The position numbers and the translations under genes are program-made. Positions 22,016 through 64,000 of a stretch of 64,000 bases of DNA are shown in pieces (position 1 is the first letter of the stretch; every line of letters starts with the position of its first letter). The stretch is from IMG/VR virus record IMGVR_UViG_3300018080_000169; one strand, given 5' to 3'. This stretch comes from an uncultured virus (IMG/VR IMGVR_UViG_3300018080_000169) (lineage: Duplodnaviria; Heunggongvirae; Uroviricota; Caudoviricetes). The notes under the pieces were generated by a model. It did no database searches. It was not told the origin of the DNA and saw only the letters and a list, made by a program, of their open reading frames with translations.

Positions 22016-23547
22016 ATTCTTTTTTCCAATCTTCGATATATTTTTTAAGTTTATCTAAATCATTCTCATCTGATTCAGGATTAATTTTATTTTCAAGAAT
22101 TGCACTTCTTAAAAAATAAGGCAAGCCGCTTTCTTCTGGATTAAATAATCCGTCATGTAATTCTGTTGTTGAATGTGGGTCATGGTCACTACCTATGAAA
22201 ATTCCACCAAATACTTCAACAAGAGTTCTCATTATATTTTGTCCTTCTTCATCTGCCCCCATTGAAAACCACTTTGCTGGTCCTAATGCAGTTTTTGTTA
22301 TTGTTGTAAACATGCTTCTACTATTTCCATCTGGTGTTTCAAAAGAAATTGTTGAAGCTTCCATAGTATCATGGAATGTTGCTTTTACATTTTTTACATT
22401 AAGATGATTTTCTAAAACAGTTTTTACATCATCTATTTTTGTATTAGCTCTTAAATAAGCATTTGTATCTACGCCCATAATTTTGTCTCCTAAATTTTTA
22501 AAGTTTATAATTATTTTATTTCAGATTGAACAAGTTCTATTACTTTAGGGTTTGCTAAATTTAGTTCTAATGATTTTTTTTCTGCTTCTCCAAAATCTTT
22601 TGCTGTAACAAAAAATTGATAGGCATTTTTTTTAGTAGTAATTTTAAATAATTTCATAATTTAAATTTTTAAAGTTTAACAATCATTTATTATTATAACG
22701 AATTAGATTTTTAAAGTAATGAAATTTTTACATATTGTGCCAATGGCGGCGTTCATTAAAGTATTGTTTCCATCTATCTCCGCCTAAATGTGATGGTTTT
22801 CCTTTGTGATATTGCCTTTCATCTATAATTACTGAAACAGCAAAAAATAACATCACTACTATCACTCCTATTAAAATAGCAATTAGTCCATCCATAATAA
22901 TTTAAATTTTGATTATATTACTTATTTTTTATTTAATATATTATACGTAAAAAAATGAGATAAGTTACATAAAATGAGTAAATTAGATAAAAAATCCCCC
23001 GACTTGAACGCCCTTAAGCTGGTAAGTGGGGGATTAAAAAATTTAAAAAACAAAATGTCAAAAAACAAACCCTCTATTAGAGATAAATAGCAATTAATGA
23101 TTTAATCGCTGAAATGTTTTTTTACATATATTATGTTTTACGTAAAAAAAACAAAAAAGTTTCAATTTTTTTTATTTTTTTAAAAATTTTCATCTAATTC
23201 AACAATTTTATCTTCTATTTCATATAGAATTTGAGAATCATATTCTTCTGGGATTGTATCGAGAAAATTTATGATATTTTTTGCACAGCGTATAATTTCA
23301 TTAGAACTTTTTGCTCTAAGAAAATCATATTCTGTTGAAAGAACTTCCATCGCTAATGAAGGAGAATCTATCTGTTCACATAAATCTTTTATATCCTCAT
23401 AAATCCTTTTTGCATATTTTAGACTCATAATTTTTTTATTTTTAAATATAGGAAAAAAATGAAAAATCATAGAAGGATATAAAAAAAATCCCCCACTTAA
23501 ATTGAGTGGGGGATTGGGGTAAAAAGAATAGGAGAAAAAAGAAATGA

Positions 23548-24099
23548 TTATTTATCAAACAGGTGATAATCTTTTACTTCAATATCAATAATTCGTCTTT
23601 CATCAGTATCGAAATAGAACATATCGTGAGCAATTTTATTTACAGGGATATCATAGCCAAGGTGTGCACATTCTAGTATTGTATCGGAACATCGAACATT
23701 TAATAATATTTCATAGTATCCTATATTAAACATTCCTTTGTTTTCGACATCACATTTTATTTCTGCGGTACCATAAGAGATATTTTGTATAATAGGATGC
23801 AATGTACTATCTATTTTGATATATGTAATACCTTTAATAATGGTGAATGTATTTCCACGGAATCCTATTACAGTATCATTATCTGGGACAATATCTTCAA
23901 GTTCTCTCATTTGAAACGCATCCAAGATGTGATGGAATACACTGTCATCAAAATATCCATATTCTTCATAATCGGATTGTTCAAAGCTTTTTATTTGCAC
24001 AGATGCTTTCAAATCTGGGTCAAATAAGAAATCTTTTTTACAACCAAAAAATATGATGATTGCTATTAAGATTGCGAGTAATAATTTAAATTTTTTCAT
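23548..24099 (-). CDS. putative lipoprotein
   Basis: Basic N-terminus, hydrophobic core, FFGC lipobox-like motif. Confidence 0.55.
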   Translation of the reverse strand: MKKFKLLLAILIAIIIFFGCKKDFLFDPDLKASVQIKSFEQSDYEEYGYFDDSVFHHILDAFQMRELEDIVPDNDTVIGFRGNTFTIIKGITYIKIDSTLHPIIQNISYGTAEIKCDVENKGMFNIGYYEILLNVRCSDTILECAHLGYDIPVNKIAHDMFYFDTDERRIIDIEVKDYHLFDK

Positions 24100-24302
24100 G
24101 ATTTATCTTTCTTTTTTATAATTGGTGCATTTGGTCTTTTTGCACATTTAATTAATTTTGTAATTTTAACTATTTTACCAGATATATCAAAGATTTTATC
24201 CTTTACTTTTAAATCTTTTGCTTTAACCCAGCCTTTATCTGTTTTAACTAAATGATTATCTGACAACATTCCTTTTTCTAATTCAATAATTGTATTTTTC
24301 AT
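24096..24302 (-). CDS. small protein resembling the N-terminal part of a Hint (intein) domain
   Basis: LVKTDKGWVKAKDLKVKDKIF...G..VKI pattern; no Cys1/Ser1. Confidence 0.4.
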   Translation of the reverse strand: MKNTIIELEKGMLSDNHLVKTDKGWVKAKDLKVKDKIFDISGKIVKITKLIKCAKRPNAPIIKKKDKS

Positions 24303-24816
24303 GATATTTTATTTATATAACGAATAAATTTCTTAAAGTAATGAAATTTTTAATATTTTTTTAAAAAATTATCTAATTTCATAAATTGGATAAATAAGAT
24401 AATCGCCAGTATATTCTAGCTCCATTCCAATATAATGGTTCATATCTTTATATCTTGGGTCTCCATGCTGGATTTCATTTCCTTTTTTATCTTTATGCTG
24501 AGTTTCATCTCTGAATGTTTTAAATCTTTTATCATTATCTAAAACTATATCATTATCTGGTCTATGACTATACTGTGCACGCCAATGAATTTCATGTAAT
24601 GCTTCGGCTTGTGTATCACATTTTGCAATCAAATCCATTTTAATATCTTTACCAGTTTTGTCGATATTAATTTTAAAGACACCATATTTAATAAAGTTAT
24701 TTAAATCAACTTTTGTATCTTTTGGAAAATATTTCTCAACCAAGAATTTTTTTCTTGCTTCAGCAGTTTCATTATCTGTTAATTTCTTTTCTGGGAGATT
24801 CTCATCTCCTTCTCTT

Positions 24817-25449
24817 TTAATAATGTCTGTCATGTTTATAATATTTTTTATAGATTTCTTGCAATTCTTTTCTCGCTCTCATAATTAAAACCTTAACTGT
24901 GTTTAAAGGTTTATTAAGCTCGAAAGCAATTTCTTCATATGCATATTCTTTAAAATATCTAAGTTCAATAACTTGTTTAAACTCTTCTTTTGTAAGTTTA
25001 TCAATAAACATATGAATTTCTTCCTTCATTTCTTTCTGGGCTATTTTTTCCATAGCTGTTTTGCAGCCACTTCTTAATTCATTTTTATATGTATCAAAAT
25101 CATTATTGTGTTTGTCTTCATCAATAGATTCGATAAATTCTTTTTGAGTTCTTAAATAATCTATGGCATGATTATGAGCAATTGTATACAGCCAAGTGCT
25201 AAATGCTTTTTTTCTAGGATTATATGTATTTAATTTTTCATATGCTTTCTGAAAAGTTTCAAATAATAAGTCCTCAGCAACCAGCTCGTCTTTTGTTAAT
25301 CTACGCATATTATTTAAAATGTTGTATTTATACTTATTTAACAATTTTGCAAATGCATTATTTTTTTCTCTTTCGTTTTTTGTTGTAAGTACAAATTCAA
25401 CTAAATTTTTATCTTCTTGAATATTAACAATTGATTTTGTTTCTAACAT
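24817..25449 (-). CDS. ECF-subfamily RNA polymerase sigma factor
   Basis: Region 2 AEDLLFETFQKAY...FSTWLYTIAHNHAIDYLR; region 4 YEEIAFELNKPLNTVKVLIMRARKEL. Confidence 0.92.
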   Translation of the reverse strand: MLETKSIVNIQEDKNLVEFVLTTKNEREKNNAFAKLLNKYKYNILNNMRRLTKDELVAEDLLFETFQKAYEKLNTYNPRKKAFSTWLYTIAHNHAIDYLRTQKEFIESIDEDKHNNDFDTYKNELRSGCKTAMEKIAQKEMKEEIHMFIDKLTKEEFKQVIELRYFKEYAYEEIAFELNKPLNTVKVLIMRARKELQEIYKKYYKHDRHY

Positions 25450-25700
25450 TTTGTTTTAAATTTTAAACTAATAATTAATTTTCAATAATAGCTAAGATAT
25501 CAGTATTCTCAGCTGTTTCTAATGCAGCATTAGCTAATACTATTACTAACATGTTATCAGAAAATTTGAATTTCTGTAACATCTGATTCCAGGAGAATAT
25601 TAAACTCATCTGGTCTAATTCTTCTATAGTTGTTAATTTTATTTTCATTGTCTTCATCTCCTTCGATGTATTTTATTTATTATTATAACGATTTATTTTT

Positions 25701-26795
25701 TTAAAGTAATGAGTTTTTTAATTTATTTATTATTTTTTCATCAAACTTTATTCTTAATAATTGAATATTATTTTTTTTACAAAAATCATTTTTTATTTTA
25801 TCTTTTTCAATTCTTAATTTTAATCCATCATCTCCACCAAAATAAGGAATAGATTTATAATGTTGTTCGCCATCATATTCAATACACATATTTTGTTTTG
25901 GCAAATAGAAATCAAATGGCAATTTATTTTTTAATTTACAACCAATAAATTTTTTTTGAGTTTCAAACATAATTCCTTTTTTTGTTAAAAAATCAAATAT
26001 CTTTTTTTCTCCTTTTGAACTTTTGCAATTTGGACACCCAACGCCAGATAAATGACTACCAGCACTTTGTTCAAATTCACCATGAATAGGACACATAATT
26101 TTTACCTTAGAATAGTGGTCCTTATAAACAACTAAAGAATAATCATATTTATTATCATGAGCCTCTTTTGCTCGTGAAATAAAAATATCAGTTGTAAGTT
26201 TTTGTGCTCCAGAACATTTTCTACAACCTTTTCCATTAAGATGACCATTTGGTTTTTGCTCCCAAATTCCATGTATAGGACATATAATTTTTATTTTGGT
26301 TCGATTATTAATATAATTTACCAAAGAATAGTCATATTTATTTCCATGAACTTTTTTGGCTTTTGCAATAAATTCTTCAGTATTACTTCTTAAACAATTT
26401 TTGAAAAAATTAATAAAACATTCTCTACATCCTTGACCAGATAAATGTTTTTCTGGCGATTGTATAAATACTCCATGTAAATTACAAACTATTTTAACTT
26501 TAATTTTGTTATTAATATAATTTACCAAAGAATAGTCATATTTATTTCCATGAATTTTTTGCGCTCTTTTAATAAATTCATTTGTAGATAATTTTTGAGT
26601 TAAACCTTTTTTTTCGTTTGCACAAATTGGACATCCACTTCCTCGTATGTGTGAATTGGCAGATTGCAAAAATTCTCCATGTATAAAACATATAATTTTT
26701 ACTTTAGAATGTGCATTTTTATAAACAGTCAAAGAATAATTATATTTGTTCCCATGAATTTTTTGTGCTCTTTCAATAAATTTTTTTGTTTTCAT
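25701..26795 (-). CDS. DUF723-repeat / Vsr-like (homing-type) endonuclease
   Basis: Four (H)(G/D)NKY(D/N)YS...C..HG...GC..C repeats; C-terminal FDFY...IEYDGEQH; likely true start at 26795 (MKTKKF). Confidence 0.75.
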   Translation of the reverse strand: MKTKKFIERAQKIHGNKYNYSLTVYKNAHSKVKIICFIHGEFLQSANSHIRGSGCPICANEKKGLTQKLSTNEFIKRAQKIHGNKYDYSLVNYINNKIKVKIVCNLHGVFIQSPEKHLSGQGCRECFINFFKNCLRSNTEEFIAKAKKVHGNKYDYSLVNYINNRTKIKIICPIHGIWEQKPNGHLNGKGCRKCSGAQKLTTDIFISRAKEAHDNKYDYSLVVYKDHYSKVKIMCPIHGEFEQSAGSHLSGVGCPNCKSSKGEKKIFDFLTKKGIMFETQKKFIGCKLKNKLPFDFYLPKQNMCIEYDGEQHYKSIPYFGGDDGLKLRIEKDKIKNDFCKKNNIQLLRIKFDEKIINKLKNSLL

Positions 26796-27087
26796 ATCAA
26801 TTTCTTTATTATAAATATAATAAAAAATATGAAAACTTCTAACTCCTATGTTAAATCCTTTTGGAGTTGGTTGTGGATAGTGTTTTGGATATGGATAATC
26901 AATTTCCCATGGGTCATCAGCGGGGAGAGTTTTTATTTCTCTCTCAGTTTCTTCATCAGGGAGAACTTCTATCTCAGGGATAACTTCTGTATCTTCATCC
27001 CCCACGCAAATCGGGAGAGTTCTCCAATTGTAGTATTCTTCAAAAGAAGAAAATTCTATATAAGAAATTCCGCTCTTTCTATATCCA

Positions 27088-28089
27088 TTATCTAATTTCA
27101 TATTTCTTTAATATTATTTCAGTTTTATCTTTTTTATTATTTAGAACATCAAAAAGTTCTACCAGTTCTTCATATTCTAAGAGGGAGAGCCTAGCTATTA
27201 CCTCTGAAATATTTTGTGTTGGCATTTGTATTGCATCCAGCAAAGTCTTCCATAATGTTGGAGACAATAAATAATGGAAAACTTCAGAATTATAATCATC
27301 AGCCTTTGCATAATAATATTTTAATTCTTTCTTAGTTAAGTCTTTAGGGATGGCCCTGCAGATTAAGTAATCGATGACACCTTTATTAACTTCATGCAAA
27401 AGAACTGGGAAATTTATTGCTTCACTTTTTATAGAAGCGTTGGGCCTATCTTGCTTCTCGAATTCAATTTTATTAATTCCTTGTGTTGTAAAATATACTA
27501 GTTCGTTCTTCCATAATTGGAAGCTAACGATTGCAATATATCTATCATAAAGGGACATTAATCTATCATCTAACTCATTAAGTTTGTCCCTAACTATATA
27601 ATGACAAGATTTCCAGACATGCATTGATGACCCATGAACTAATCCATTTAATATAATTCGCTTCTGAATTTCTCGCTCTACGTATTTTATTCTATCTGGT
27701 GCAGGTTCTTCTATGTCTTCTTGCTGAGCATCGAAATCAATGTCTTCAATACCCGATTTTAATTTTGCCTGCAGGACCAAATGCTCAGGGACATCATAGA
27801 TTTCTTTAATGGTATTTATAGCTAATCGTTCAAGCTGAGGCTTTAACCTTTTTTCAATCCTTGTTGTTATCACATATGCATTTTGAAATAAATTCAAGCA
27901 GCGTTTAAGCAAGCCGTCTTCTCCTAATTTATATTCATCTGGAAGTTTGTTCTTGAACAGTTCTTTGCATCTCGTGAATTCTTGTTGACCATATGATTGT
28001 CCATTCTTGGCATACAATTCGTTCTGAGCTAAACCAAAGGTACCATTATTGAGATGATTTATGATTGATATGTGTGGATGATATGGCAT
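27088..28089 (-). CDS. conserved-looking large-phage hypothetical protein
   Basis: 333 aa; KRIILNGLVHG and FPVLLHEVNKG motifs. Confidence 0.55.
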   Translation of the reverse strand: MPYHPHISIINHLNNGTFGLAQNELYAKNGQSYGQQEFTRCKELFKNKLPDEYKLGEDGLLKRCLNLFQNAYVITTRIEKRLKPQLERLAINTIKEIYDVPEHLVLQAKLKSGIEDIDFDAQQEDIEEPAPDRIKYVEREIQKRIILNGLVHGSSMHVWKSCHYIVRDKLNELDDRLMSLYDRYIAIVSFQLWKNELVYFTTQGINKIEFEKQDRPNASIKSEAINFPVLLHEVNKGVIDYLICRAIPKDLTKKELKYYYAKADDYNSEVFHYLLSPTLWKTLLDAIQMPTQNISEVIARLSLLEYEELVELFDVLNNKKDKTEIILKKYEIR

Positions 28090-29279: not shown

Positions 29280-30392
29280 AATTATATTATTTTAATGGTT
29301 GATAATTCTAATCCTCTTTCAGATACTATAACAGATTTTGTGAAAGTTTCTGATTTCTCTGGAGCCAATCCATATGTATTAGCTGCATGCTTTAACGCTT
29401 CTGCTATGTTTTTAGCAATTTCTTTAATTTCGTTGTCATCAGAGATTGAATCCTCAAATTCAAGTTCTACGACAAATTTTACTTTTTTACTCATTTTGTT
29501 TTCTCCTTTTTTTGTTAATAAAAGCCCCCACTTAAACAGGGAGAGCTTGGTTAATAATTAAGTTTTTTTCCATATTCTTCATCGGTGATATTGCCTTCAA
29601 TAAGATTTATTTTGGTACGCAAGATTTCAGTTAGTCTGTCCACTTCATCACCATCTAATGGTTCATCAGAGCCGTCTTTATAAAACTCAATGATTTTATA
29701 AAGTTCATCTGGGAAACCGAAGTCTTCGGCTTCTGATATAAGACCAGTTGTTTGAATTTTTTCTAATTCATTCATAAAATCATTATAAAATGTTGGGGCA
29801 TCAAAAGCTATTGAAAAACAAGTGTTTTCATTATCATCTACTCCATCTTCATCAGTTTTCCATATAGACATTATGTAATTATCAGGATTTTCAATAACCC
29901 AAAAACATTCTGTTTCTTTTTTATCAGGTTTTCCTAAAAGTTCCGATAACTCATTTATGGTAGCTCCGAATTCAATACAGCTTCTGCCCATAATTTCTTT
30001 TTTTGCGTCTTTTAGTCTTTTGTACTTCATTTTGTTTTCTCCTTTTTTTAAGTTTTTGAGAGGGAGAATTGTTTATTCCCCCTATATAATCGCAAGTTTT
30101 TTAATTTCTAAATCTCCGCTGGTATAATCTGTCCCGTATTCTATTTGTTCAACTTTACCAATCATTACACCACCAGTTGATTGCACTACAACTCCATATT
30201 TTTTTGATAATATGGTAAGTTCTTTAATAAAATTATTATAATTATTTCTTATAATATTTTCATCTGCTTTTTTAATTTTCATTTTAATTTCTCCTTTTTA
30301 TTGTTATAACGAATTGATTTTTTAAAGTAACGAAGTTCACGAAGTAATAATGAAAAAGTTTATCCCCCACTCAATTTAAGTGGGGGAGAGTT

Positions 30393-32705: not shown

Positions 32706-33149
32706 TTAAATGCTTTTTAAAGATTTAAGAATATTAGTTTGAGTTTTTTCACCCATTCGGGAGAGTTGTGCAATTTTACCTTCTTCACAAACTTGTCTCA
32801 AAGTTGTCAAATCAACAACACCTAATTCATCATATAATCTGAATATAGTTTTAGGCCCAACTCCATCAAGTTTAATTAGGGAGAGGATGTCAATTGGATA
32901 CTTTTTCTTTAATTGTTCAAGTTGTTTAATCTTACCAGTATTGATAAGTTCTATAACTTTCTTCTCAATTGTTGAACCAACTCCTTCTAATTCTGTAAGG
33001 GTTCCTTGTTTAGTAAGTGTTTCAATATTTTCTATTCCCGCTAAACTTTCAATAGCATTTTCATAAGCCAAGGCACGAAACTTTTCGCCAAGCATTCCCA
33101 TAAATATGCTCATCATTTTTAATGCGTTTAAAATTGTTCTATTGTCCAT
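32706..33149 (-). CDS. DNA polymerase X N-terminal (8-kDa/HhH) domains as a separate gene
   Basis: FRALAY..A, LEGVG..I..K..E...TG, LDGVGPKT...LY.ELG, GEKT..NIL. Confidence 0.8.
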   Translation of the reverse strand: MDNRTILNALKMMSIFMGMLGEKFRALAYENAIESLAGIENIETLTKQGTLTELEGVGSTIEKKVIELINTGKIKQLEQLKKKYPIDILSLIKLDGVGPKTIFRLYDELGVVDLTTLRQVCEEGKIAQLSRMGEKTQTNILKSLKSI

Positions 33150-33635: not shown

Positions 33636-34172
33636 TTATTTAATTCTGTTTTCTGGTTTAACATAATCCATTCCTAAAAACTCAAAGACTTCTCTTTCTT
33701 CTACGAATGGAAATGGGTTGCTAAGTAATCTTAAAAAGCCATCAGTTTCTTTTACATATCCTGAGTTTAGATATTGGGCTTTTTGTATTTTGTCAAGTTC
33801 TTTTCCATCAACTTCATCAAGAACTTTGCGTAATGATTCTTGGTTTAATCGGTATCCTCTTTTTTTGGCAATGGCTCTCATCTTAATGTTGAACTTTTTG
33901 GAACCAATAAAATATAAGAGTGCGAAGGGGAGAGTTTCTTTTGTGGCACGAATTACATCAACCTGTTCTCCATCTATTCTATATTCTCTTTTATCGTTAC
34001 CACCTTGTATGAGTTCACCAAATGGGAGTTTGGGCATTTCCTTTCCTACATAAATTACATCTAAATCATGTAAGTCTTCTTGCTTGCCCCTTCTTGCAGA
34101 CCCAGCTAATAAAAAAGCTGAAGAGAAATGCTCTAATTTTGCGAATATGGTTAATGCTTTCTGTAAATTCAT
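33636..34172 (-). CDS. DNA polymerase X palm/thumb (nucleotidyltransferase) as a separate gene
   Basis: AGSARRGK...HDLD, VDV, LLYFIGSK.FN..MR..AK..G..LN, EREVFE.LG...V.PE.R. Confidence 0.85.
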   Translation of the reverse strand: MNLQKALTIFAKLEHFSSAFLLAGSARRGKQEDLHDLDVIYVGKEMPKLPFGELIQGGNDKREYRIDGEQVDVIRATKETLPFALLYFIGSKKFNIKMRAIAKKRGYRLNQESLRKVLDEVDGKELDKIQKAQYLNSGYVKETDGFLRLLSNPFPFVEEREVFEFLGMDYVKPENRIK

Positions 34173-34917: not shown

Positions 34918-35721
34918 TTATTCAAACAGGTCAATTAATTCTTCTGCCTGCAATTTTTTCTTCAGTCGGGATACCAGTTTTTCAAGAAGTTTAGTCTTCT
35001 CATTTTCAACGCCTTTATCTTTCAGGGTAATTTTCAATTCAATCAATGTTTGCATTGGTGAAGACTTCTTCAGTTCTGTAAGATTTTTTGCAGTAGCTTT
35101 TCTTTTTGAGCCACCTTTTGTTTCAGCATTAACAATTGCTTTTTCAATCATTGACAGTTGCTTATCTACATCATCTGTGGACTTAATGATTTCAAGAACA
35201 GTGTTATCACTAATTTTTCCTTCAACAATTTTGTTTTGGACTGCCTTTGATGAATTTGCCAGTCTCAATACATTGGATACAAAAGAGGGAGAACGACCAA
35301 TCTTCTTTGGGATTTCAACCTGTGTGAATCCGAAATTAATTAATCGTTGGCAAATTAATCCTTCTTCATACGCTGTCAGTTTTTTACCATCATTGCAAAG
35401 GATTAAATCCATGGTTCTTTGTTCTTCGTTGTATCCTTTTGGAGCTAGCATAACAGGGACACGAGCAATTTCAACTCCTTCTTCTATGGCTTTCTGAATT
35501 GCTATCAGTCTTCTGTGTCCATCAATCAGGATGAATTTTTCATCTGTGCTTCTGTCTTTGTATCCTCTTAGGGGATTCTTTAATCCATTTTCTACAATGG
35601 AGTTTTTAAGCTCTTCAATGTCCCCCAAGTCAATTCTAACGTTGAAACCTTCTTTGATAATGATGTTGCGTGGGTCAACCATCATAACATCTTTTCTTTT
35701 GGTGCTGTTTAGTTCTTTCAT
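34918..35721 (-). CDS. ParB/RepB/Spo0J-family protein (ParB N-domain + HTH)
   Basis: EL..SI...G...P, LIDGHRR arginine patch, HTH TQVEI.KKIGRS.SFVSN.LRL. Confidence 0.85.
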   Translation of the reverse strand: MKELNSTKRKDVMMVDPRNIIIKEGFNVRIDLGDIEELKNSIVENGLKNPLRGYKDRSTDEKFILIDGHRRLIAIQKAIEEGVEIARVPVMLAPKGYNEEQRTMDLILCNDGKKLTAYEEGLICQRLINFGFTQVEIPKKIGRSPSFVSNVLRLANSSKAVQNKIVEGKISDNTVLEIIKSTDDVDKQLSMIEKAIVNAETKGGSKRKATAKNLTELKKSSPMQTLIELKITLKDKGVENEKTKLLEKLVSRLKKKLQAEELIDLFE

Positions 35722-38938: not shown

Positions 38939-39362
38939 AGTGTTTTTATTTATATAACGAATTTAATTTTTAAAGTAACGAAGTTGACGAAGACATAATG
39001 ATTTTATCTTATTCTTCCACCTAATTCATCATAGTCATCTGGTATATCTTCATAATTGCTAACAATAGTCTCAACTCCACCAACCATTGCATAAATTGTC
39101 GGCTCCTCAATATCCCCTTCAAAAATAGGGATAAGTCTCCAACGAGTTTGGTCTTTCAAAAGTATTACTAAACAAGTCTCCAAAGGTAAAACTTCAAAAC
39201 TGTAATAATCTTCAGGATATTCTCCGTTCATATCAGCTACTTGAAAACCTAATAATTTTCTTCCATTTATTTCTAATTTCATAGCGTTTTTATTTATATA
39301 ACGAATTTAATTTTTAAAGTAATGAAAATCCCCCCACTCAATTTAAGTGGGGGAGAGTTAAT

Positions 39363-39746: not shown

Positions 39747-39774
39747 TGTTTTATATTTTAATTAATAAATAAGT

Positions 39775-45069: not shown

Positions 45070-45147
45070 TGCGAGGTGGAGCAGTGGTAGCTCGCCAGGC
45101 TCATAACCTGGAGGTCGTCTCAAACGGTTCGAACCCTACCCTCGCTA
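45070..45147 (+). tRNA. tRNA-Met(CAT), initiator-like, with an insertion in the T-stem
   Basis: Acceptor TGCGAGG/CCTCGCT with 1:72 mismatch; anticodon arm CCAGG-CTCATAA-CCTGG; TTCGAAC T-loop; 5' T-stem reads GTCTCAAACGG instead of GTAGG. Confidence 0.75.
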
Positions 45148-45164
45148 CTAAATAAAACACTGAA

Positions 45165-47273: not shown

Positions 47274-47306
47274 ATTCGTTTTTTGTCTTTATAACGAATT
47301 TGGAAT

Positions 47307-48206
47307 TTAAAGTAATGAAAATATATTATTTAATTTTTTTTCAATATTCTGATTGTATTTAATTCTTATCATTTTTATATTATTTTTTACACAAAAATCA
47401 TTTTTGATTTTATCTCTTTTTTGCGTTTCTTTTAAACCTTTTTCGCCTCCCCAAAAATTTATTGGCTCAAAATGTTGTCTTCCATCAAATTTTATACATA
47501 TATTATATTTTGGAATATAGAAATCAAATTTATATTTTTTAATTTTTTTATATTTTTCAAAAATTTTATTATATTCGTAATCAATATTATTTTTTTCTAA
47601 AAAATTAATTATTTTAATTTCTCCTTTTGAAGTTTTACATTTTGGACATCCATGACCATTAAGATGACTTTTAGCTTTTTGTAAAAACTCTCCATGTTCT
47701 TTACAAATAATTATTACTTTTTTAAATGCTCCATCATATCTTGTTTTACAATAATCATATTTATTATTATGAATTTTAGTAGATTCTTTTATAAATTCTT
47801 CTGTTGTTTTCTTTTTATTTCCACTACATCTTGCACATCCGAAACCTTTTTTGTGATGTTTTGGGGATTGATAAAAAGACCCGTGTTTTTTGCAAATTAT
47901 TTCCACTTTAGTATTAATATTAATATAATTAACTTTTGAATAATCATATTTATTTCCGTGAACATGTTTGAATTGATTTATAATTTTTTCATTAGTTAAT
48001 TTTATGTTTCCTGCACAATAAGGACATCCTTGTTTTTTATTATAATGTTTAAGCGGAGCTTGTTTAAATTCTCCATGTTCTTTACAAATAATTATAACAG
48101 GTGTAAAACAATCTATATAAACAGATTTTGAATAATCATATCTATTCCCATGAACTTTTTTACAATTATCTATAAATTGTTTTTGAGTAAATTTTATTTT
48201 TTTCAT
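47307..48206 (-). CDS. second DUF723-repeat / Vsr-like endonuclease
   Basis: Three H(G/N)N(R/K)YDY...C..HG...GC..C repeats; FDFY...IKFDGRQH. Confidence 0.75.
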   Translation of the reverse strand: MKKIKFTQKQFIDNCKKVHGNRYDYSKSVYIDCFTPVIIICKEHGEFKQAPLKHYNKKQGCPYCAGNIKLTNEKIINQFKHVHGNKYDYSKVNYININTKVEIICKKHGSFYQSPKHHKKGFGCARCSGNKKKTTEEFIKESTKIHNNKYDYCKTRYDGAFKKVIIICKEHGEFLQKAKSHLNGHGCPKCKTSKGEIKIINFLEKNNIDYEYNKIFEKYKKIKKYKFDFYIPKYNICIKFDGRQHFEPINFWGGEKGLKETQKRDKIKNDFCVKNNIKMIRIKYNQNIEKKLNNIFSLL

Positions 48207-48623
48207 TTGTATATTTTATTATAAATATACAAAAAAAACAAAAGTGGAGAGGTGGCAAATCCACTTAATAACAGCATTATCCATTAACTTCTTTAAAAAG
48301 TTTATTCAGTTCATCCTCCGTCATTTCTTTAATACCGCTACGCTTTTTAAGAATTAATGCTTTTACAAACTTTATTTTTTTTACTACATTAGTAAAAAGT
48401 TCATATTCTAATTCAATCAAAGCATCAGACAAATGACTTTGCATAACTATATCAATATCAAGTTTCATAACTTTTATTTTATATAACGAATTGAAATTTT
48501 AAAGTAACGAAGTTTCCGAAGGAATAATGAAAAAAGGGACTAAAAAATCTAGTCCCCAACAAACAAAAAAATATATGATTATTATAATCCTTAATAAAAC
48601 TATCACAGAAAAATTAAGGATTG

Positions 48624-48695
48624 TATGAGGGGCAGGAGTTGAACACTGCGACACACAGCTTTTCGGACTGTTGCTCTACCACTGAGCTACCCCCA
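48624..48695 (-). tRNA. tRNA-Phe-like gene, degenerate (6-nt loop CCGAAA, T-stem bulge)
   Basis: Minus strand GTGGGGGTAGCTCAGTGGTAGAGCAACAGTCCGAAAGCTGTGTGTCGCAGTGTTCAACTCCTGCCCCTCATA. Confidence 0.65.
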
Positions 48696-50058
48696 CTTAA
48701 ATAAGGTTCACTAAAAATATAAAAAGTTTTTCTTGAAAAATAAAGGAAAATTTAAAAAAATTTTTTATAAATCAACTAAGTATCCATCAGTTTCACAATT
48801 TGGGCAACCAAAGAAAAAACCGCCCTCATCTTCAAATTGTTTTAGTGGTTCAATACCTGCTTTATCAGGATATTCTTTTGCATTTATCTGGGGATTTAAG
48901 TCTTCAAATATCCCCTCACAATTATTACATTTACATAGTTTCATGCTGTTTTTTATTTATATAACGAATTTAATTTTTAAAGTAACGAAGTTTCTGAAAG
49001 AATAATGAAAAGGGAGAGCCTACTTTGTAAGCTCTTCCAAAAATCCTTTTGCCATTTCAATAGCTTCATCATAATCATAAGCTACATCATAGTCATCAGA
49101 TATGTCATTGCCGTCTTTGTCAATTTCAACAAATGCAAACCAATTATTATTACCCCACCCGTCATGTTCACTTAATTTATTCAGGTCTTTATCTTTAAGG
49201 TCTCTTTCCAATGCTTCAGTTACAGCTTGTTCATTTTTAAACACATCACCATCTTCTTCAAAACACACTCTAATTTCGCCCCTTGTTTCAATGCTGATAA
49301 TTCTGCCTTTATGTTCAACTGTGGCTATTTGTCCGTCTCCTTTATACCAGAACGAATCCTTTTTGTCTTCACCTAATTTTGATACTATTGTATTTACTTT
49401 CATGTTATTTGTTTTTTTATTTATAAAAGCCCCCACTCAATTTAAGTGGGGGAGAGTTTTTATTTTTTATTCTTCAAATTCTTCACCGTTCCCAAAAATC
49501 GTTTTGTCATTCTCATATACTTCTATTGTTGAGCAACCACCATTTTCTTCAACTGTCATTTGTTCCTCAACATTATCCATTTTTTAGCACTCAACATTCA
49601 TGTCGCCTTCTTCAGCTAACAAATCAAATATATCATCAGCACAATTAACTTTACCTGCTTTAATTGCGTCTAATACTTTTTGTTCCTGGTCAGGTTCAAC
49701 TGTTACCTGTTCCCATGTTGTAATTTTAAATTGAAATTTTATATTATTTTCTCCTTTTTATTTATATAACGAATTAAACTTTTAAAGTAATGAAATATAA
49801 AAGCCCCCACTCTATTTAAGTGGGGGAGAATTTTAATAATCTATTTCGGGAGATGTAACAAATCCTTTATGACAAAAACCTGTTATATTAGAAATTTCAT
49901 CACTAATAAACTCATTAATTTCATATCCGTCTTCTATGTCTTCAGGGACTTCTATTTCTAACTCTTCAGGCAAATTAATATCTTCTCCGTCTGTGTCATA
50001 AATTATATCAGTAACAAGATATTTCATATTATTTTCTCCTTTTTATTTATATAACGAA

Positions 50059-50952
50059 TTAAACTTTTAAAGTAATAGGTTTGTCAATTTTTTTGACTTC
50101 AACTTTATCTCTATAAGATATGTTTCTATATCTTATTTTTTCAGCCATTTTATTAGCTTTCTTTTCATCAACAAATTTCTTTACAGCCCAACTATCAGAA
50201 TAATAGATATATTTAAAGCCATATTTTGTATTTTTAACAAAGTATCCAACTCCGTCAATATATATTACATAGAAAAATGGAAATTCTTTTTCAACTTTTT
50301 CTTTTTTAGTTTTAACATTAAGATAATGTCTCATATTTTTGAGAGCATATTCACCCATGCAAAAATCAAAACTGTATCTTACTTTTGTCCCTTTGTAATA
50401 CTCATCAAATTTTTTGATAACTTCAACCAATTCTTCAGTCGTCTTTGGCATTTCTGAAGGGAGAGCTTCTTTTTTTGCTTCTTTAAGTTCTTTGTCATAT
50501 AAACTTTCCCAAACAAATATTCTAACTCTTATATGATATTCAGCAAGTTCTTCAACTGTCTTTGCATTTTTTATACCATACATATAAACATTTTTAAAAG
50601 CTCCAAATGATGTCCCGCTTGTGTGTTTACCATATAAAGCAATAGCAGAAAAGTACCCAAATCTTTTGTCAGAATAAACGTCCCAATCAGGGGTTTCTTC
50701 TAATGTCTTTTTATTTCTTTCAATTAAACTATCTCTATATTCTGTTAAACTTTTTTCAAAGTCTTCTTTTGTTGCAATAGTTTTGCCATTTGAAAAATAT
50801 GTACTAACGCCCCAACTTCGGCTTCTTCTTTCTTTGCCCCTTTTGCCATAAGAAACATCGAAAACATTATTATCCCCAGAAAGTATCATAGGCACAAATT
50901 GATTTTCGCCTACTTTGATAAATTGTTTGTCGTAAATAATATGATAACTCAT
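50059..50952 (-). CDS. hypothetical protein
   Basis: 297 aa; C-terminus overlaps the next class II unit. Confidence 0.6.
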   Translation of the reverse strand: MSYHIIYDKQFIKVGENQFVPMILSGDNNVFDVSYGKRGKERRSRSWGVSTYFSNGKTIATKEDFEKSLTEYRDSLIERNKKTLEETPDWDVYSDKRFGYFSAIALYGKHTSGTSFGAFKNVYMYGIKNAKTVEELAEYHIRVRIFVWESLYDKELKEAKKEALPSEMPKTTEELVEVIKKFDEYYKGTKVRYSFDFCMGEYALKNMRHYLNVKTKKEKVEKEFPFFYVIYIDGVGYFVKNTKYGFKYIYYSDSWAVKKFVDEKKANKMAEKIRYRNISYRDKVEVKKIDKPITLKV

Positions 50953-51428
50953 GTTCGCTCCTTTTTTTTATTATAACGAATTAATATTTTAAAGTAACGA
51001 AGTTTGCGAAGTAATATTAAAAGTTTATAGTTTTTGTTCTTCCTAACAAAGTAAATTTACTTTTATCTCCAAGATATGTTAAACGAATATTTATTGCCAT
51101 TCTTACAGCATCTTCCAAATTGTTAGCTACAAAATAAACTTTGCTTAAACTTCCAATCGTAAATCTAACATAAAATTTTAGACGTTCAATATCCAAACTA
51201 TCATCTTTGTATTTTTCAATCCTATATGATATTTCTTCCCTTTTCAAATAATCTTTAACAGTTCCGTTAAAATCTAATGTTTTTGTCCTAAAATTCCACC
51301 AATGAATTATTAAATTAGAATTTAAAATTCTTTTAATTTCATCTTTATTATGCTTTTCCATTGTTTGCTCCTTTTTTTGTTTGTATAACGAATTTGTTTT
51401 TTAAAGCAATGAAAAGGGAGAATCCCTC

Positions 51429-52571: not shown

Positions 52572-52623
52572 AATGTTTGTGTTTTTTATTATATAACGAA
52601 TTTAATTTTTAAAGTAATGATAT

Positions 52624-53115: not shown

Positions 53116-56100
53116 TTGTTTTGTTTTTATTATATAACGAATTTAATTTTTAAAGTAATGAAATTTTAACGTTGTCCAAAGCGTCCTTTATCTATCCAAA
53201 TTATCAATTCATTTTCGCTTGGTCTTAACATAACTGAACATTTTTTTGATAAAAGATAATTAACTATCTCATTCCTTTTTTTTGTGGAATATTCAAATTC
53301 CTCTAAATGTTCATATTTTATTCCTTCAATTTTGCTGTGCCAATATCCTATTTTTATTTTTTTCATTTGTTTTTATTTATATAACGAATTTAATTTTAAA
53401 AGTAATGAAATTCTACTTTAACTACAAAAAAAATATATTTAAAGTAACAATTAAAATGAAAAAAGAGGAGGACTTTCACCTCCTCCAAAAACAAACAAAC
53501 AGGCAATTTGTCCCAGAACGGGACTGAAAAGTTCTTTTATATCTTTAATCTGAACAACGCTTTTCTGTTTTCAGCATATCAGCTTCATAATTTTGAAGTA
53601 TTAACGAAATTTCATCTATTGTGTCTTCATCCAATTCTTCATACGCAACTGAAAATTCATCAACTTCTGTTTCGTGAACATACGTAACAACATCAACATC
53701 ATTATTATTAAATCTTTCAATCAGGGAGAAATTGTCTTTTCCTATTGTAGCATAAACAGGAGAGTTTTCTGATTCCAGTTCACCCATAGAAATACTACCC
53801 CATTCTTCAATAATTCTTTTTATTTCTGAAATTTTTTGTTCCTTAATATCTACTTCATGCCCAATTTCAACAACTTCTATCATTCCTTCATCATCAATAT
53901 TGCCATTAATTAATGCTTCTAAAATGTCTTTTGTGGTAGGAGATTTTTCTCCAACATACTTAATTTTAAATTCTTTTTTCATAGCTTTTGTTTTTATTTA
54001 TTATAACGAATTATTATTTTAAAGTAATGAATTTATGCTCCGCAACTTTCTAAAATATCATCAACTTCTTCCTGGTCATTCGGGGAGAGTTTTTTGTAAT
54101 AGCTTTGAAATTTATCTTTCAACGCTAAACATTCATCATCTTTACCCTCTCTTAAAAGTTCTTCAGCATCTAAAAACATTTGTGCAACTTCATCAGCTTC
54201 CAAAACTATATTTACATCAGGGTAAATTTTTTTTACAGTATCAATTAAAACTTTTCTGTCCTTTTCATCAGGACTAAAAAGTTCTAAACGTCTGCCACCT
54301 GGGCCCCAAATGTCTATTGAAAGGTCTGCAAAGTGGTCAAAAAACATTCTTTTGTATTCTTTATAAAAAAATATAGCCGTAACATTTGAGCCAACTTGAA
54401 TAACACATTTGTATTTGCCTAATTTAACTTCCCCAAAAACATCATTTTGGGTAACTTTTTCAATTAATCTTTTTAAATATCCCATGATTTTTGTTTTTGT
54501 TTATATAACGAATTTAATTTTTAAAGTAATGAAATTTATGTCAATAATGTAAATTATTTTAATTTCTCCACCAACGATAATATTGCGTTAACAGTTTTTT
54601 CATTTTCAAATAACTCTTTATCTACTTCTATTACATAATCAATATTAAATGTCTTTTTTTTCTTCCCTGTCTTCAGATTCATGTCCAATATTAATAAGTT
54701 ATGCACCATGTTTTACCATGCACACATAAACACTATACTTTGACCATGAACAACAAAAAACTGTCCATCCCGAAAATTCAGGAAATTCAATTTCTGTTAA
54801 ATCTTCTGTAGTTTTATTCTTCCTGATATTTGTTGTGTTTTTATTTGCTTCCAATACGATACAAGGTATATCATTTTTATTACTACCAGTAGCCGAAATT
54901 TTACCCCATTTATTTTTTGTGTCAATACAAAAAGCTATTACATTATCTGATTTTTGATAAGTAATACAATTGTTTACAGAAATAGCACCTTGATAAGTAA
55001 CACGGTGCATAACAACAGGTATATTTAATACCTGTGTTTCAGTGTTATTCAAGTTTTCTACTTTTTTCATCTTTATTTGTATTTTGATTGTTTATACTAT
55101 TTAATCAGGCACTAAACATATCTGTTGGATTGTGTTTGTAAGTTTTATGATTTCAATTTTTTTCATTGTATCTATATAATGAATAAAAATTATGAAATAA
55201 TGAATTAATATGTAACTTATAGCTCATCAAGCACATTAATAATTTCCTGTGAATAATCATCAATTAATTCATCAGTCATTAATTCATACCTACTATAAGG
55301 TAATTCTTTTTCAAATTTTTCAACTGCATTTTTAAATTTTTTTACATCATCAGTTGAGAAAGTTCTACTCATTGTATCAGATGAATGTTTGTCTATTGCT
55401 GTAATTGTTAGTAAATCCATAGCTTTTTTTATTTATATACCGAATTAAAATTTTAAAGTAATAAAAATCCCCCCACTCAAATTAAGGGGGAGAGTTCTTT
55501 TAATCTTCGTCTGGCAGTTCAGCAATTTCTTTTTCGCCTTCTTCGTGTTCTATTGCCCTGTCATTCCAGGTAATTATTTCATATTTTTTGCCTTCATATT
55601 CAAAAACTTCTGCATCGCCTGCATTTGAGTTTGTTTGACTTTCATCAATAGGATAATCATATAAAAATTCTCCATTTTCTAAAACGTCTTGAATGTTTGG
55701 TTTCATAGTGTTTTTTTGTTTATATAACGAATAAAAATTTTGAAGTAATGAATTATTACTCAAATTCAAAACTTATTTCAGTAACATACATATCAGCATC
55801 ATCAAAACCTGGATTTATCATTTTAAGATAATAAATATCAAAATATCCGAATGTATCTTCTTTTTTTGAATTAAACATGAAATTATAATCACAAGGTTTA
55901 TTATCAAAATTTGTGCAATCTTCTCCTTTAATTTCTTCATTAAAAATTTTGCTCAACTCTTGATTTAAGGTTTTTGATGAAAATCTTTTGCCAACAAGTT
56001 CTTCTAATTTGGCTACTATTGTTTTTTGAATATCTGTCATAATTCTTTTGTTTATATAACGAATTAAAAATTTAAAGTAATGAAATTAAACTCTGCCTCT

Positions 56101-59100: not shown

Positions 59101-60209
59101 TCCCTCAATTCTCTTTCTGCGTTTTCGCTATTTATATCAACCTCTAACCTATCCCATTCTTTAGCGTTTTTCTGACTTGTCTTTCTGCTTGAACCTTCCG
59201 AAAAGTCCCATTCTTTAGCTATTACAATAGCTTTTGTCGGAGTAGTCTTTGCGGTTATTACTCCGCCTTTGCAATATTCACCAATTTTAAAAGTTTTTTC
59301 TGCCATAGTGTTTTTATTTATATAACGAATTGTTTTTTTAAAGTAATGAATTATATATTTTCAAACGGGTCCCAAGAAAATATTTGATAATCTAACTGAA
59401 GTCTTTTCCTTACTTTCTTCTTTTTCTTACGTGGGTAATTTTTAGACCTTTGCCATTCTTCACGAATTTCTTTTAACTTTTCTTCATTGTTGCCCCTCAT
59501 TGTGCTTTCAAACATCAATGCCATTCCATATAACATACCTAACATTTTGCTCATGCTTTTTCCTCCAACGCCTTTTTAATTTGGTGATAAATTTGAAATT
59601 GCATATCATATTGAATTTGAGCATAATTTTCTTCACTCCCAGAAAATCCAACTTCTTTTAAAATCTCCTTTGTCTTTCTTAAAGATATATCCCTTAATTT
59701 TTTAAGAAGTTTATCATCATATTCAGATATTTTTTGTCCCATTTGCTTTTATTTATATAACGAATTAAAAGGGAGAAGTAATGAAAAATCCCCCACTTAA
59801 TTTAAGCGGGGGAGAGATTTTATTCTAGCTCCTCAACAATTTGCTTAATATCTATAATAAAACTTTCAAAATCTTCTAAACTTTCTCTTATTTTAAAGTT
59901 TTCCCTGTATTCTTTATTTAAACGGTGAATTTCAATTTCTTCATCAACATCAAAATTATCTACATAAAACTGTAGTTGTTCTTTAACTGGTTTATTTTTA
60001 TTAATAGTAATAATCATATCTACACCGCCGTCTGTCCATTTTTCAAGCTCTATTATATCATCTGAAAAGTGAACGCCAAAATGTTTGTCTAATATTTGTT
60101 TATTTTTTTCTGTCATAATTAACTCCTTTTTTTATATAACGAATTAAAAAATTGAAGTAATGAAAAATAAAAACCCCCCCCCACTTAATTTAAGCGGGGG
60201 AGAGTTTTT

Positions 60210-60548: not shown

Positions 60549-62285
60549 AGTCGTTTGTTTTTGTTTATATAACGAAATTAAATTTTAAAGTAATGAATGA
60601 ATATTCAGCTAAAATTTCTTTTTCAATTTCTTTTATTATTGCTGTTCTCTGTGCTTCTTTTCTTTCTTCGTATATTTCTTCAGCGTGTCTATAAAAAAGA
60701 AAGTTTATATCTTCTTCAAACTCTTTTATAATTTTGTTATATTTAAGCTCTTTAAATATTAGTGTAAATCTTTTGCGTGTTCTTCGCCCCTCTAATATTT
60801 CTCCGTCCCAAATTATAACTTTAATTTCAAAATCATTTTTGTTAAAAGTTAGTGATACATCTAAATTATGTGAATATGTTGTCCAAGAATCAATTTTTTT
60901 CAATTTCTTCTTCATTTCTTCTTTTGTGTCAGGATAAACAAAAAAATTTTTTGCCTCATATTCCTGAAAGTCTAAATTGTGCTTTTTACAAAAATAAAAA
61001 AATTCAGCACCATGTCTAAAATTTCCTGTTCGTATATAACCCAAAATTTTTGCCTTTTTTGAAAGTGTTTTTATTGTTGTCATTTGTTTTTATTTATATA
61101 ACGAATTAAAAGGGAGAAGTAATGAATTAAAAGTAAAATTCATCAATTTTTATATCAAATCCTTGTAAACCAAAAATAAGTTCTACAAAATTATTATATG
61201 TATTTTCTCCAATATATCCTTCAGTTACAATTTTTCCGTCTCGTATTTCAATGTGTCCAAGCACCTGTCCTTTTTTTCTAATTGACATCAAATGTTGGTC
61301 TATTGTTAAATCTAAATTTTTATAGTCCATGATATTTTACTTTTATTTATATAACGAATAGAAATTATGAAGTAATGAAATTATACTCAAACCCTTTTGT
61401 TTTGTCAAACATAGCTTTAAAAATATCTTTAGGTTTTTCATTTTGTAAACAAATATTCATAGCGTCATCTGAAGTATGGTCTAATTTTTCGCCTTCTTTA
61501 ATAACTTCAATTATTGGACGGGGAGAAATTAGTGTAGGGGGTTTTCCTACTTCGTGCAAACCAAAAATTATTTCAACATCATCTTTTATATAGCAAATAT
61601 CCAAATCTCCCATTGAAGAAAAAAAATCTGTATAATGCTTTTCTTCTGAATATTCCCACTCTTTTGTTTTCCTGTTAAATCTTTTCCTGTATGGTTTAAA
61701 TCCTTTTTGTTTTATGTATTTTGTGAAATTCATTTGATTATATAACGAATAAAAAAGGAGAAGTAATGAAAATCAATTATGAAAAATCTTTATTCATCCA
61801 ATATTCATCATCACCTGGGTCTTGACATTCATATCTTTCAGCCCTTTCATCTAACCACGCCTGACTAGCGGGAGAGATACGAGTTGTATTGTTTCTTTTG
61901 TTCGGGGTTACTGTATTCCAATATTTATCTTTACAAACTGTTTTGCCCTTTGTTCTGCAAAATGCTTGTTGATAGTGTTCTTTTATAAACTTTGTCCCGC
62001 AACTAGGACAAATACATTCTTCACCAACTTTTTTGGACTTATTTAATTTGTATCGTTCTTTTAGTTTCATTTAACAATATACATTATTAAAGTTAGATAT
62101 ATTTATATATATACCACTATCAATATTGTTTTTCTTCCTTATCCTGCCAAGTTCTTTATCTTTTTGTTCATCAACATCAAAAGGATTAAGATATTCTGAA
62201 GGCAAATAGTGCCACCCTTCTTTATCAAAATATTTTACTGTATATAATGATTTTTTCATATTGTTTATTTTATTTATATAACGAA

Positions 62286-62426
62286 TTATTTTTTAAAAGT
62301 AATGATTTTATATATATTTAATTTTTTACATTTAGCACAACGCCTCGCTTCTTTACCTAAATACCTGGCACTCAAAACCTCTTCAGCTTCGCAACATGGA
62401 CTTAATTTTTTATTTTCTTTGTTCAT
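62286..62426 (-). CDS. 46-aa Cys-rich protein not in the ORF track; paralog of 57531-57668
   Basis: SPCC.AE..LS.R.LGKE..RC.KCKKLN.YK in both. Confidence 0.65.
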   Translation of the reverse strand: MNKENKKLSPCCEAEEVLSARYLGKEARRCAKCKKLNIYKIITFKK

Positions 62427-64000
62427 GCTGTTTGTTTTATTTATATAACGAATTATTTTTTTGAAGTAACAAGCTCTTTAAAATTATTGTTGCCATTTAT
62501 CCAACAATATAAATTTCGGCTAACTGCAAAATATTTGTCAAATACGCCCTCAATTATATTTCTTGCCCTGCTTATCTTATCACACATTTCAGAATAAGGG
62601 AGATTTTCATTTCTTATTTTGTCTTCTTCTTCTCTTTCTAAATCCCTTTGTATTCGTTCTAACCTGTCTAAATTACTTCCATATCTTTTGTAATAAGTAG
62701 CATATTTTTTGATTGCTTTTTCTGTTTTGTTTTCTATTCTGCACATACGATTTTTATTTATATAACGAATAAAAACTTTGAAGTAACAAAATTTTTGTCT
62801 ATTTCTTTTTTTCTTCAAAAAACTCTAAAGGTGTAACTACCTTAGCTCTATTACCAATAATTTCTTGTGCCGTTTCATATTGTAATTCAGAAAACAAATT
62901 TCTAACTTCGTTTTCTGTGTATAGCTTTAATAATTTTAAAAAATATTTTTTCATAAGTGTTTGTTTTGTTTATATAACGAATATAAATTATGAAGTAATG
63001 ATTATATTATTGCTAAAAATTCTCTATCTGTAAAATAATCCAGAATAGGTGTTGTATTTATTACTTCTAGTATTATGGCAATGTCTATTTTATTAGAATT
63101 TGCTTTTTTAGTTTCCTTAGCAACTTGTTTTGCAGTTTCTAAAGTTCCTATATGGTCTTGCAACCAATATCCATTAATTTTATTTTGCCTTTTTGATGAT
63201 ATGTTTATTAAAGAAAATTTGCTCATTTGTTTTTGTTTATATAACGAATAAAAACTGAGAAGTAATGAAGTTTCTAAAAGGATAACGAAAAACTGTCTAT
63301 TCTTTAGCAAAGGGAAGTGAATAGTATTTGACAAGTCTATCAAAATCTTTATTAATAAACATATCATAAACAGTTGTATCATCAAAATCTTTTAATAATC
63401 CTGAATTGTACCCCACTCTTTTATATCCGTTTGAAGTTAATACATCATAGACATATTTGAACGCTATTGTAGTAAATCTTTTTATTCTAAATTTTAGTTT
63501 ATCATCATCCGTTGTTGGTACATCAATAACCCAACTTAAAAGAATATCATCCCAAGCATCATACCCATTATCTCTACCACTAAAATAAGCATCATCTGGT
63601 ATATCATTATCTTTCATAAATTTAGGTATATCTAAAGGATTAACATCAATAATACTAACGCTTTTAATAATCTTCTTTGTAATTGGAGTTTGCCTATCAA
63701 GTTTGCCTATTGCGTCATTTAATGCCTTTATAATAAGAGTTTTCATCTTTGCTTGTTTATTTATATAACGAATAAAAACTGAGAAGTAATGAAAATTAAT
63801 TTAAAATTTTTTCTCTATCTGAATCTAAACCAGTATAAAATACTTGTATTTCGCTATCAATTTCATCAATAGTATGTTCATAAACAACTATTTGTCCATC
63901 ATTATTTTTAACGTCTGTTATTGCATCTTCATCTTTTTTTACCATTTCAATAGCTTTTTCTAAATTACTGGCAATACCAATTACTCTATGAGAAGCCCAA

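Follow-up and report, generated by a model that had tools for sequence, protein, structure and literature searches.

A 41-kb array of putative ECF-type promoter units and a candidate cognate sigma factor in a large uncultured phage

Promoter/stem–loop elements (PeSLs) are, in the reports that describe them, conserved intergenic promoter cassettes of the T4-type phages RB49/phi1, T4/PST and KVP40/nt-1 (PMC2839356, PMC4122927). According to one of these reports, phi1 carries 52 copies, the promoters are host sigma70-type early promoters, a stem–loop is always included, and the cassettes are proposed to provide homology for recombination (PMC2839356). A further mark of PeSL cassettes is that recombination between flanking copies gives rise to mini-circles. 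Here, we describe a comparable layout in a 64,000-nt stretch of DNA (the window) from IMG/VR record IMGVR_UViG_3300018080_000169, an uncultured member of the Caudoviricetes; the window is part of a 72,469-bp contig. A unit of about 40 nt recurs 66 times in a single orientation, before small and mostly unrelated genes, and the same region encodes a sigma factor of the extracytoplasmic function (ECF) type. This array is an ECF-promoter variant of the PeSL architecture, both real and large. Our search of the literature for the motif, or for ECF sigma factors in jumbo or Bacteroidota phages, found no description of such arrays, supplements lying outside that search.

The two systems share dozens of promoter-like cassettes placed just upstream of orphan open reading frames (ORFans) in a hyperplastic region, a terminator that can belong to the cassette, and relatives that differ by insertion, deletion or replacement of genes between cassettes. 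The ends of these changes also fall at cassettes (18 of 31 here, a figure from short contigs in which the units are themselves the gene boundaries). The sequence-only reading of this DNA had already drawn the comparison with PeSLs, and it is apt. Unlike PeSLs, whose promoter follows the host sigma70 consensus, the array promoter is of ECF type and is probably read by a phage sigma factor; a stem–loop accompanies only 14 of the 66 units, and the density is higher, with all units in one co-oriented 41-kb block of a phage that need not be T4-like.

Promoters of the SigW/RpoE type combine an AAC-containing −35 element with a CGT-containing −10 element at a distance of 16–17 nt, and phage regulons of the phiEco32/7-11 type contain a modest number of middle or late promoters that head operons. 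The array units share with the former their two boxes, a CGT core in the −10 box and a −35 box that ends in AC and is followed by T's, and the locus shares with such systems a sigma factor made of regions 2 and 4 only, encoded behind its own promoter. They differ in having TAC for AAC, a 15-nt spacer, conservation over about 40 nt, and unrelated phage genes downstream instead of a stress response. For phiEco32 gp36 and the sigma factor of Salmonella phage 7-11, the published accounts report that host polymerase is redirected to phage-specific promoters, and they describe no arrays with one promoter for each gene (PMC8948821, PMC12276001). In the window, too, a small sigma70-family phage protein occurs with a conserved phage-specific promoter class, their pairing being putative, but here there are 66 promoters with about one accessory gene each, the sigma gene lies among the genes that it presumably controls, and a Bacteroidota host is probable.

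Our preferred explanation, to which we give a probability of roughly 0.6, is that the array is a set of accessory genes under a private ECF promoter and that its units are also joints for gene turnover. The stretch from 22.7 to 64 kb would be a hyperplastic accessory region of a large uncultured phage, in which nearly every gene or pair of genes has its own promoter of about 40 nt. Each unit would be an ECF (group 4 sigma) promoter, with a −35-like CATTAC, a 15-nt spacer and a −10-like CGTTATA, and would be read by the host RNA polymerase core carrying the phage ECF sigma factor (24817-25449). Every accessory gene would have its own strong start followed by a short A-rich leader, and terminators at about one-fifth of the units would insulate neighbours. 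The outcome would be a private, uniform and polarity-free expression class of about 90 small genes, whose timing we likewise infer from sequence. The 28–43-nt repeats would in turn supply homology for the deletion, insertion and replacement of cassettes by homologous or microhomology recombination, as has been proposed for PeSLs.

Architecture of the array units

On the plus strand of the window, TATAACG-N15-GTAATG occurs in 51 exact copies, with none on the other strand and none in 100 shuffled sequences. Because the array genes lie on the minus strand, the working unit is read as CATTAC-N15-CGTTATA. With up to two mismatches allowed in the 13 fixed bases, the minus strand holds 67 matches (51 with no mismatch, 11 with one and 5 with two); a two-mismatch match at 35635-35662, within the coding region of the ParB gene, looks like chance and was dropped, which leaves 66 units. 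No unit in the opposite orientation was found at this threshold within the 64-kb window. All 66 are co-oriented and confined to 22694-63791, with a median spacing of 464 bp and a mean of 632 bp. The sequence-only reading had counted about 66 co-oriented copies, and this number is reproduced; it had left the strand unstated, and genes and working motif are now both placed on the minus strand. The block comprises about 91 minus-strand genes with a median length of 97 amino acids (aa), as judged from the map of open reading frames (ORFs) and from negative GC and AT skews.

The full unit has a 43-nt consensus, aatTTCATTACTTtAAAAatttAATTCGTTATATaAAtAAAAa, composed of two conserved boxes at a fixed distance and a variable A/T spacer between them. 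The −35 box has TTAC, the spacer measures 15 nt, and CGT is present in 63 of the 66 units. The boxes, CATTAC and CGTTATA, form neither a sigma70-type TTGACA/TATAAT pair nor the TTTG/TAnnTTTG pair of Bacteroidota. Units are asymmetric and A/T-rich, lack inverted repeats and show no conserved potential for pairing within themselves; the longest exact identity between two of them is 43 nt. Together with the ECF sigma gene inside the array, these ECF-like boxes uphold the earlier description of the motif as an ECF-type promoter, and from their sequence and placement we consider it very likely that the units function as promoters.

Their position relative to genes is equally regular. The ATG of an ORF of at least 30 aa lies 5–38 nt downstream in 64 of the 66 units, and the preceding stop codon overlaps the unit or lies within 10 nt of it in 35 (a manual count on crude gene calls). 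By the same crude calls, a single gene follows 43 units, two genes follow 13 and three to six follow 5, while the other 5 units have no gene to serve. The view that units bound mostly single-gene cassettes with largely unrelated cargo thus stands, since the array holds just three paralogous pairs.

An upstream hairpin of −8 kcal/mol or stronger precedes 14 of the 66 units, as against 10.4% of 500 random windows, and most of these 14 are copies of one conserved G+C-rich terminator. Leaders with a GGAG-type ribosome-binding site (24 of 66, often AAAGGAGAAAA) are found almost entirely in the downstream half of the array, 25.7–51.4 kb. Bacteroidota are reported to use such sites sparingly, and their presence here is odd. 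The leaders at 52–64 kb are plain and A-rich.

A few units deviate from the common form. The unit at 49765-49792 is identical in spacer and leader to that at 50050-50077 (both on the minus strand), yet has ATA in place of the start codon and no ORF after it, and its cassette looks dead or non-coding; the surrounding 48.5–49.8 kb hold one tRNA, two terminator copies and few ORFs. Five minus-strand units have the −35 variant CGTTAC (30305-30357, 38953-39005, 48482-48534, 48960-49012 and 50972-51024) and carry an additional conserved box of about 25 nt upstream, TTTTTCATTATTnCTTCGnnAACTT. This box often follows a terminator and resembles a partial copy of the 5′ half of the unit. The same combination of CGTTAC unit and extra box occurs in two metagenome relatives, L121 and L124.

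The sigma factor and a second lineage

The ECF-type sigma gene belongs to the array and lies 2.5 kb short of its downstream end. Its product scores 92.1 bits against the NCBIfam sigma70-ECF superfamily model (cut-off 42.9); among the named models SigW comes first, below its own cut-off. The closest cellular relatives are conserved ECF sigma factors of about 202 aa from Bacteroidales and other Bacteroidota, at about 40% identity. As expected for an ECF regulon, the locus thus encodes a sigma factor with regions 2 and 4 only. It is the second gene of a three-gene operon that stands behind its own array-type unit, and the gene is placed in the same way in the relative L122 and in L222; in L122 the sigma operon is kept (59% aa identity). 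ECF regulons commonly include a co-transcribed anti-sigma factor; the third gene of the operon, of 154 aa, has no match in Pfam, PHROG or NCBIfam and is possibly a partner of the sigma factor. Pfam and PHROG family searches of the window ORFs found no other candidate for a promoter-reading factor.

An alignment of this sigma factor with its relatives led to three near-identical contigs in IMG/VR, G001-G003, of 88–168 kb, which belong to a distant phage lineage. The sigma homolog of G001 shares 35% identity with that of the window by tblastn and 29% over the full alignment, and it too sits within an array. The motif TGTAAC-N15-CGTTATA has 73 matches in G001, 70 of them on one strand across 39.4–82.8 kb, so that 70 co-oriented units span 43 kb; a reversed-pattern control gave none. 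An ATG-initiated ORF begins within 50 nt of 57 of these 70 units. The −10 box and the spacing are those of the window, whereas the −35 box differs (TGTAAC against CATTAC, or TAAC against TTAC), and each lineage keeps one uniform −35 box over about 70 units. When the sigma factors are aligned, region 2 proves to be conserved in all of them, and the region 4.2 helix differs among the window lineage, G001 and the cellular family. The array unit thus seems to covary with the phage sigma factor across lineages and would be a likely target of that factor. The architecture of G001-G003 supports a cognate sigma–promoter pair, and we regard the phage sigma factor as the probable reader of the units.

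Apart from HNH genes, the arrays of the window and G001 have seven genes in common, at 32–42% identity and with six of the seven in the same order; they include ParB, a 333-aa gene and the sigma gene, which is near the downstream end of the array in both lineages. The remaining cargo is different. Further searches in IMG/VR returned just the three near-identical contigs for the exact G001 motif, and so no long relative of moderate divergence in which breakpoints could be compared; they gave one chance-like match inside a gene for the strict window motif and, among the matches listed, only single ones for a looser form. The window motif had no match in genome contigs, and the window sigma factor as a single query had none among viral contigs.

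Two other phages offer no close parallel. The crAss-like phage cr10_1 encodes a SigW-like sigma factor at 39% identity, and no comparable repeated motif was seen by eye upstream of 22 of its genes. The early transcripts of phi14:2 are reported to lack a common motif, which provides no parallel. A second sigma-like protein, of 294 aa, is encoded by a cassette of the relative L128 (777-1658), with 24% identity to the window sigma factor over 144 aa; this cassette sits between homologs of the window genes at 45403 and 42411, where the window has an unrelated 326-aa gene.

Cassette differences among relatives and competing explanations

The same 28–43 nt stand at every gene boundary, and the units should therefore also be sites of gene gain, loss and replacement among relatives. 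Scanning metagenome contigs with a strict form of the unit yielded 16 contigs of 1–4 kb, from diverged relatives, in three data sets. They carry 52 units, and their homologous genes are 67–87% identical to window genes in DNA, although only 25 of their 84 ORFs have a homolog in the window (manual count). Among the eight contigs with at least two anchors, six are colinear with the window and have cassettes inserted, deleted or replaced (L121, L122, L128, L129, L130 and L134), whereas L124 and L131 join cassettes that are 10–22 kb apart in the window. In L121, a 341-nt cassette is exchanged for a 234-nt one exactly between two units. L134 joins window cassettes that are 4 kb apart; its two alignments have 37 nt in common (L134 1175-1211), and these cover the 28-nt unit. 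Units flank the replaced cassettes in L121, L129 and L134. Overall, 18 of 31 internal ends of homology lie within 25 nt of a unit, compared with a background of 14.7% (p=3e-8). The sequence-only reading had looked to relatives for breakpoints at the motif rather than stable gene order, and, as far as these contigs reach, both content and order do differ, with more than half of the ends at units. These cassette-wise differences fit PeSL-like modular shuffling, in which the unit may plausibly drive recombination; we judge the chances of such a causal role to be even.

A number of observations weigh against our preferred explanation, and several of them favour the alternative that the units are merely promoters. 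Relatives would then differ by illegitimate recombination, selection would filter the products down to whole genes, and genes would keep or acquire the promoter for the sake of expression. Intergenic DNA is almost wholly unit, so that any whole-gene turnover ends at units and breakpoints there are expected anyway. Having orthologous genes downstream does not make units more similar (13.75 mismatches against 13.8 for non-orthologous ones, 12 pairs), and units of one contig resemble each other no more than they resemble those of different contigs (13.58 in both cases, p=0.50), which gives no sign of homogenisation or concerted evolution. G001 and G002 come from different samples and their arrays differ by 1 nt, with no sign of fast shuffling; paralogs are few. 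The short-read contigs of 1–4 kb could, moreover, be chimeric at repeats of 30–40 nt, but order is preserved in six of the eight, which argues against wholesale chimerism. On the other side, a 40-nt promoter found 66 times before unrelated genes needs some copying mechanism, and a lineage-specific −35 box over all units would be hard to reach by independent mutation. The replacement in L121 is bounded by units on both sides, and adjacent units of the window show slightly fewer mismatches than pairs drawn at random (12.55 against 13.8; 0 of 5000 shuffles). That the units are nothing but promoters is in our view possible, at clearly less than even odds.

Other observations bear on the pairing with the sigma factor. 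A motif search upstream of 80 cellular loci of the sigma family gave 10 loose matches at scattered positions, which is no independent support for the unit as the target. A sigma gene behind its own promoter needs another way of starting. ECF promoters usually have AAC in the −35 box and a spacer of 16–17 nt, and the array unit has TAC and 15. A search of sequencing runs listed no RNA run with the window sequence and one DNA run, which probably is the origin of the contig. Finally, a second promoter class of ECF-like form, TGAAAC-N16-CGTATAA, stands at the head of operons outside the array; it resembles the SigW consensus and could be the true target of the phage sigma factor.

The units might then be early promoters for a different factor, either a host ECF sigma factor or one that enters with the DNA, with the phage sigma factor serving TGAAAC-N16-CGTATAA, which heads DNA-modification and repair operons at 1–22 kb. 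This would agree with the match of the second class to the SigW-type consensus, SigW being the best named NCBIfam match of the sigma factor, and with a cargo that looks like an early region of small ORFans; such a cascade would avoid a self-dependent sigma factor. The sigma factors of phiEco32 and 7-11, too, are reported to act on later genes (PMC8948821, PMC12276001). Against this, the second class is unchanged in G001 (17277+, 20041+, 23489+, 108650- and 109878-), that is, identical in lineages whose sigma factors share 29–35% and differ in the region 4.2 helix. Its invariance makes a conserved factor, perhaps a host ECF sigma factor, its more likely reader. The −35 box of the array, by contrast, differs between lineages as the sigma factors do, and the window yielded no other candidate factor. 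We therefore rate a different reader of the array as rather unlikely.

Two further possibilities carry little weight. It is very improbable that the unit acts at the RNA level, as a site of processing or a leader for translation in long polycistronic transcripts: it lies 5–38 nt before starts, has an A-rich 3′ part and goes with only 24 of 66 leaders that have a GGAG-type site, but a constant distance of 15 nt between two conserved boxes, with the spacer free to vary, is a pattern of DNA recognition, pairing is not conserved in the unit, and with a terminator before 14 of the 66 units the downstream gene would be untranscribed unless a new promoter followed. The earlier label "integron-like", with a dedicated site-specific recombinase moving cassettes at the unit, is hardly tenable: the single-gene cassettes, lined up in a long co-oriented row and set apart by a repeated element, do recall integrons, and a serine recombinase is encoded at 4224-4817, yet that enzyme is paired with a TnpB-like gene in an IS607-type element 18 kb away, neither a tyrosine integrase nor the integron integrase family (IntI) was found in the 145 ORFs of the window (about 8 kb of the contig lie outside it), the asymmetric, A/T-rich units without inverted repeats are no attC-type hairpins, and a promoter for each cassette is the opposite of the common Pc promoter of an integron.

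Cargo, surroundings and implications

By its content, the window seems to belong to a large phage: there are PHROG matches, methyltransferases, two tRNAs, two HNH homing-endonuclease-like genes, an IS607-type element and a ParB-like gene (Table 1). Most array proteins are without a family in Pfam and PHROG searches, and PADLOC returned no clear match and one marginal match for 88 of them; the cargo as a reservoir of anti-defence genes is accordingly only a proposal. The host is probably a member of the Bacteroidota. Promoters of the primary-sigma type of this phylum stand just upstream of genes at 1–22 kb and of tRNA-Met, which points to such a host and to at least three promoter classes; none occurs in the array units.

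Table 1. Coordinates of the array, the sigma operon and other features of the window
Feature	Position	Strand	Remarks
Array of 66 co-oriented units	22694..63791	-	each before 1–2 (rarely 3–6) small genes
Commonest 28-mer unit, example (10 identical copies)	53133..53160	-	upstream stop 53166, 6 nt away; ATG 53115, 17 nt after
ECF-type sigma factor, 210 aa	24817-25449	-	Sigma70_r2 + r4_2 (Pfam); candidate reader of units
Unit heading the three-gene sigma operon	25684..25711	-	possible autoregulation
First gene of sigma operon, 60 aa	25475..25657	-	61% aa in relative L122
154-aa gene	24369..24833	-	overlaps sigma stop by 17 nt; 63% aa in L122; no family
HNH homing-endonuclease-like gene, 466 aa, inside array	25701..27101	-	paralog 47307-48206
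333-aa gene, no family	27088..28089	-	backbone anchor; 68% aa in L135, 39% in G001
ParB-like gene	34918..35721	-	one of 7 backbone anchors common to G001
tRNA gene inside array	48624..48696	-	
tRNA-Met	45070..45148	+	sigmaA-type promoter TTTG-N20-TATCTTTG at 45005 before it
Strongest G+C-rich terminator hairpin (CTCCCCC..GGGGG + T run)	60169..60209	-	just upstream of a unit
Further terminator hairpin copies	59789-59813, 55469-55489, 49804-49826, 49430-49452		
TGAAAC-N16-CGTATAA copies	2097-2125(-), 7690-7718(-), 10426-10454(-), 18622-18650(+), 20511-20539(-), 22941-22969(-)		TGTAAC in the copy at 22941-22969
Bacteroidota primary-sigma-type promoters (TTTG-N17-23-TAnnTTTG)	3609(-), 4258(-), 12094(-), 12109(+), 15816(+), 18478(-), 21026(-), 45005(+)		

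The 466-aa HNH protein has two paralogs in G001 besides that in the window. At the same place, the relative L135 has a 75-aa ORF (1039-1263) that shares only the first ~52 residues with it, which suggests that an HNH endonuclease module was fused or inserted here. Domains of a polymerase X/beta-like DNA polymerase are spread over two minus-strand genes in permuted order, the nucleotidyltransferase and thumb gene first and the HHH domains second (32706-33149 and 33636-34172); two small ORFs and a unit separate these genes. Outside the array, the IS607-type element (4224-5920, plus strand) lies opposite to the surrounding minus-strand genes; its serine recombinase gene (Resolvase; 'transposase' in PHROG) overlaps the TnpB-like gene, which has a Cas12f1-like TNB domain. 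At 17314-19263 (plus strand), also outside the array, there are four paralogous genes of 85–89 aa with 39–61% identity, of which three form a tandem and the fourth lies 0.9 kb beyond it.

Resemblance to cultured phages is slight. Megablast found no match to them for positions 1-20000 and just patches of 56–117 nt for 40000-62000, and tblastn of two large array proteins against them found none. The only notable DNA matches are 55009-55125, a stretch of 117 nt that is 88% identical to part of the Cellulophaga phages phi19:3 and phi13:2, in a hypothetical gene, and the tRNA-Met region, which matches Lak phages.

The array extends the PeSL idea, in which a regulatory cassette is also a recombination joint, beyond T4-type phages and host-type promoters to what appears to be a phage-private ECF circuit, and it does so at a scale of 66–70 units per genome in two lineages. 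A bolder version, which we offer tentatively and do not expect to hold in full, would have related large phages of Bacteroidota keep a 40-kb 'cassette bank' of about 70 genes whose promoter is read only by the phage sigma factor and doubles as a homology patch for integrase-free exchange. If that were true, sigma factor and −35 box would co-evolve by lineage (CATTAC, TGTAAC) and create separate gene-exchange pools, in which a cassette is expressed only with the matching sigma factor. The two arrays also provide a candidate orthogonal sigma–promoter pair from Bacteroidota phages, along with about 130 natural variants of the promoter, a set that may be useful for deriving rules of promoter strength and for synthetic biology in a phylum whose transcription signals are unusual. 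Finally, the units mark about 90 small genes as one putatively co-expressed accessory set, which makes the array a rational place to search for host-takeover and counter-defence functions.

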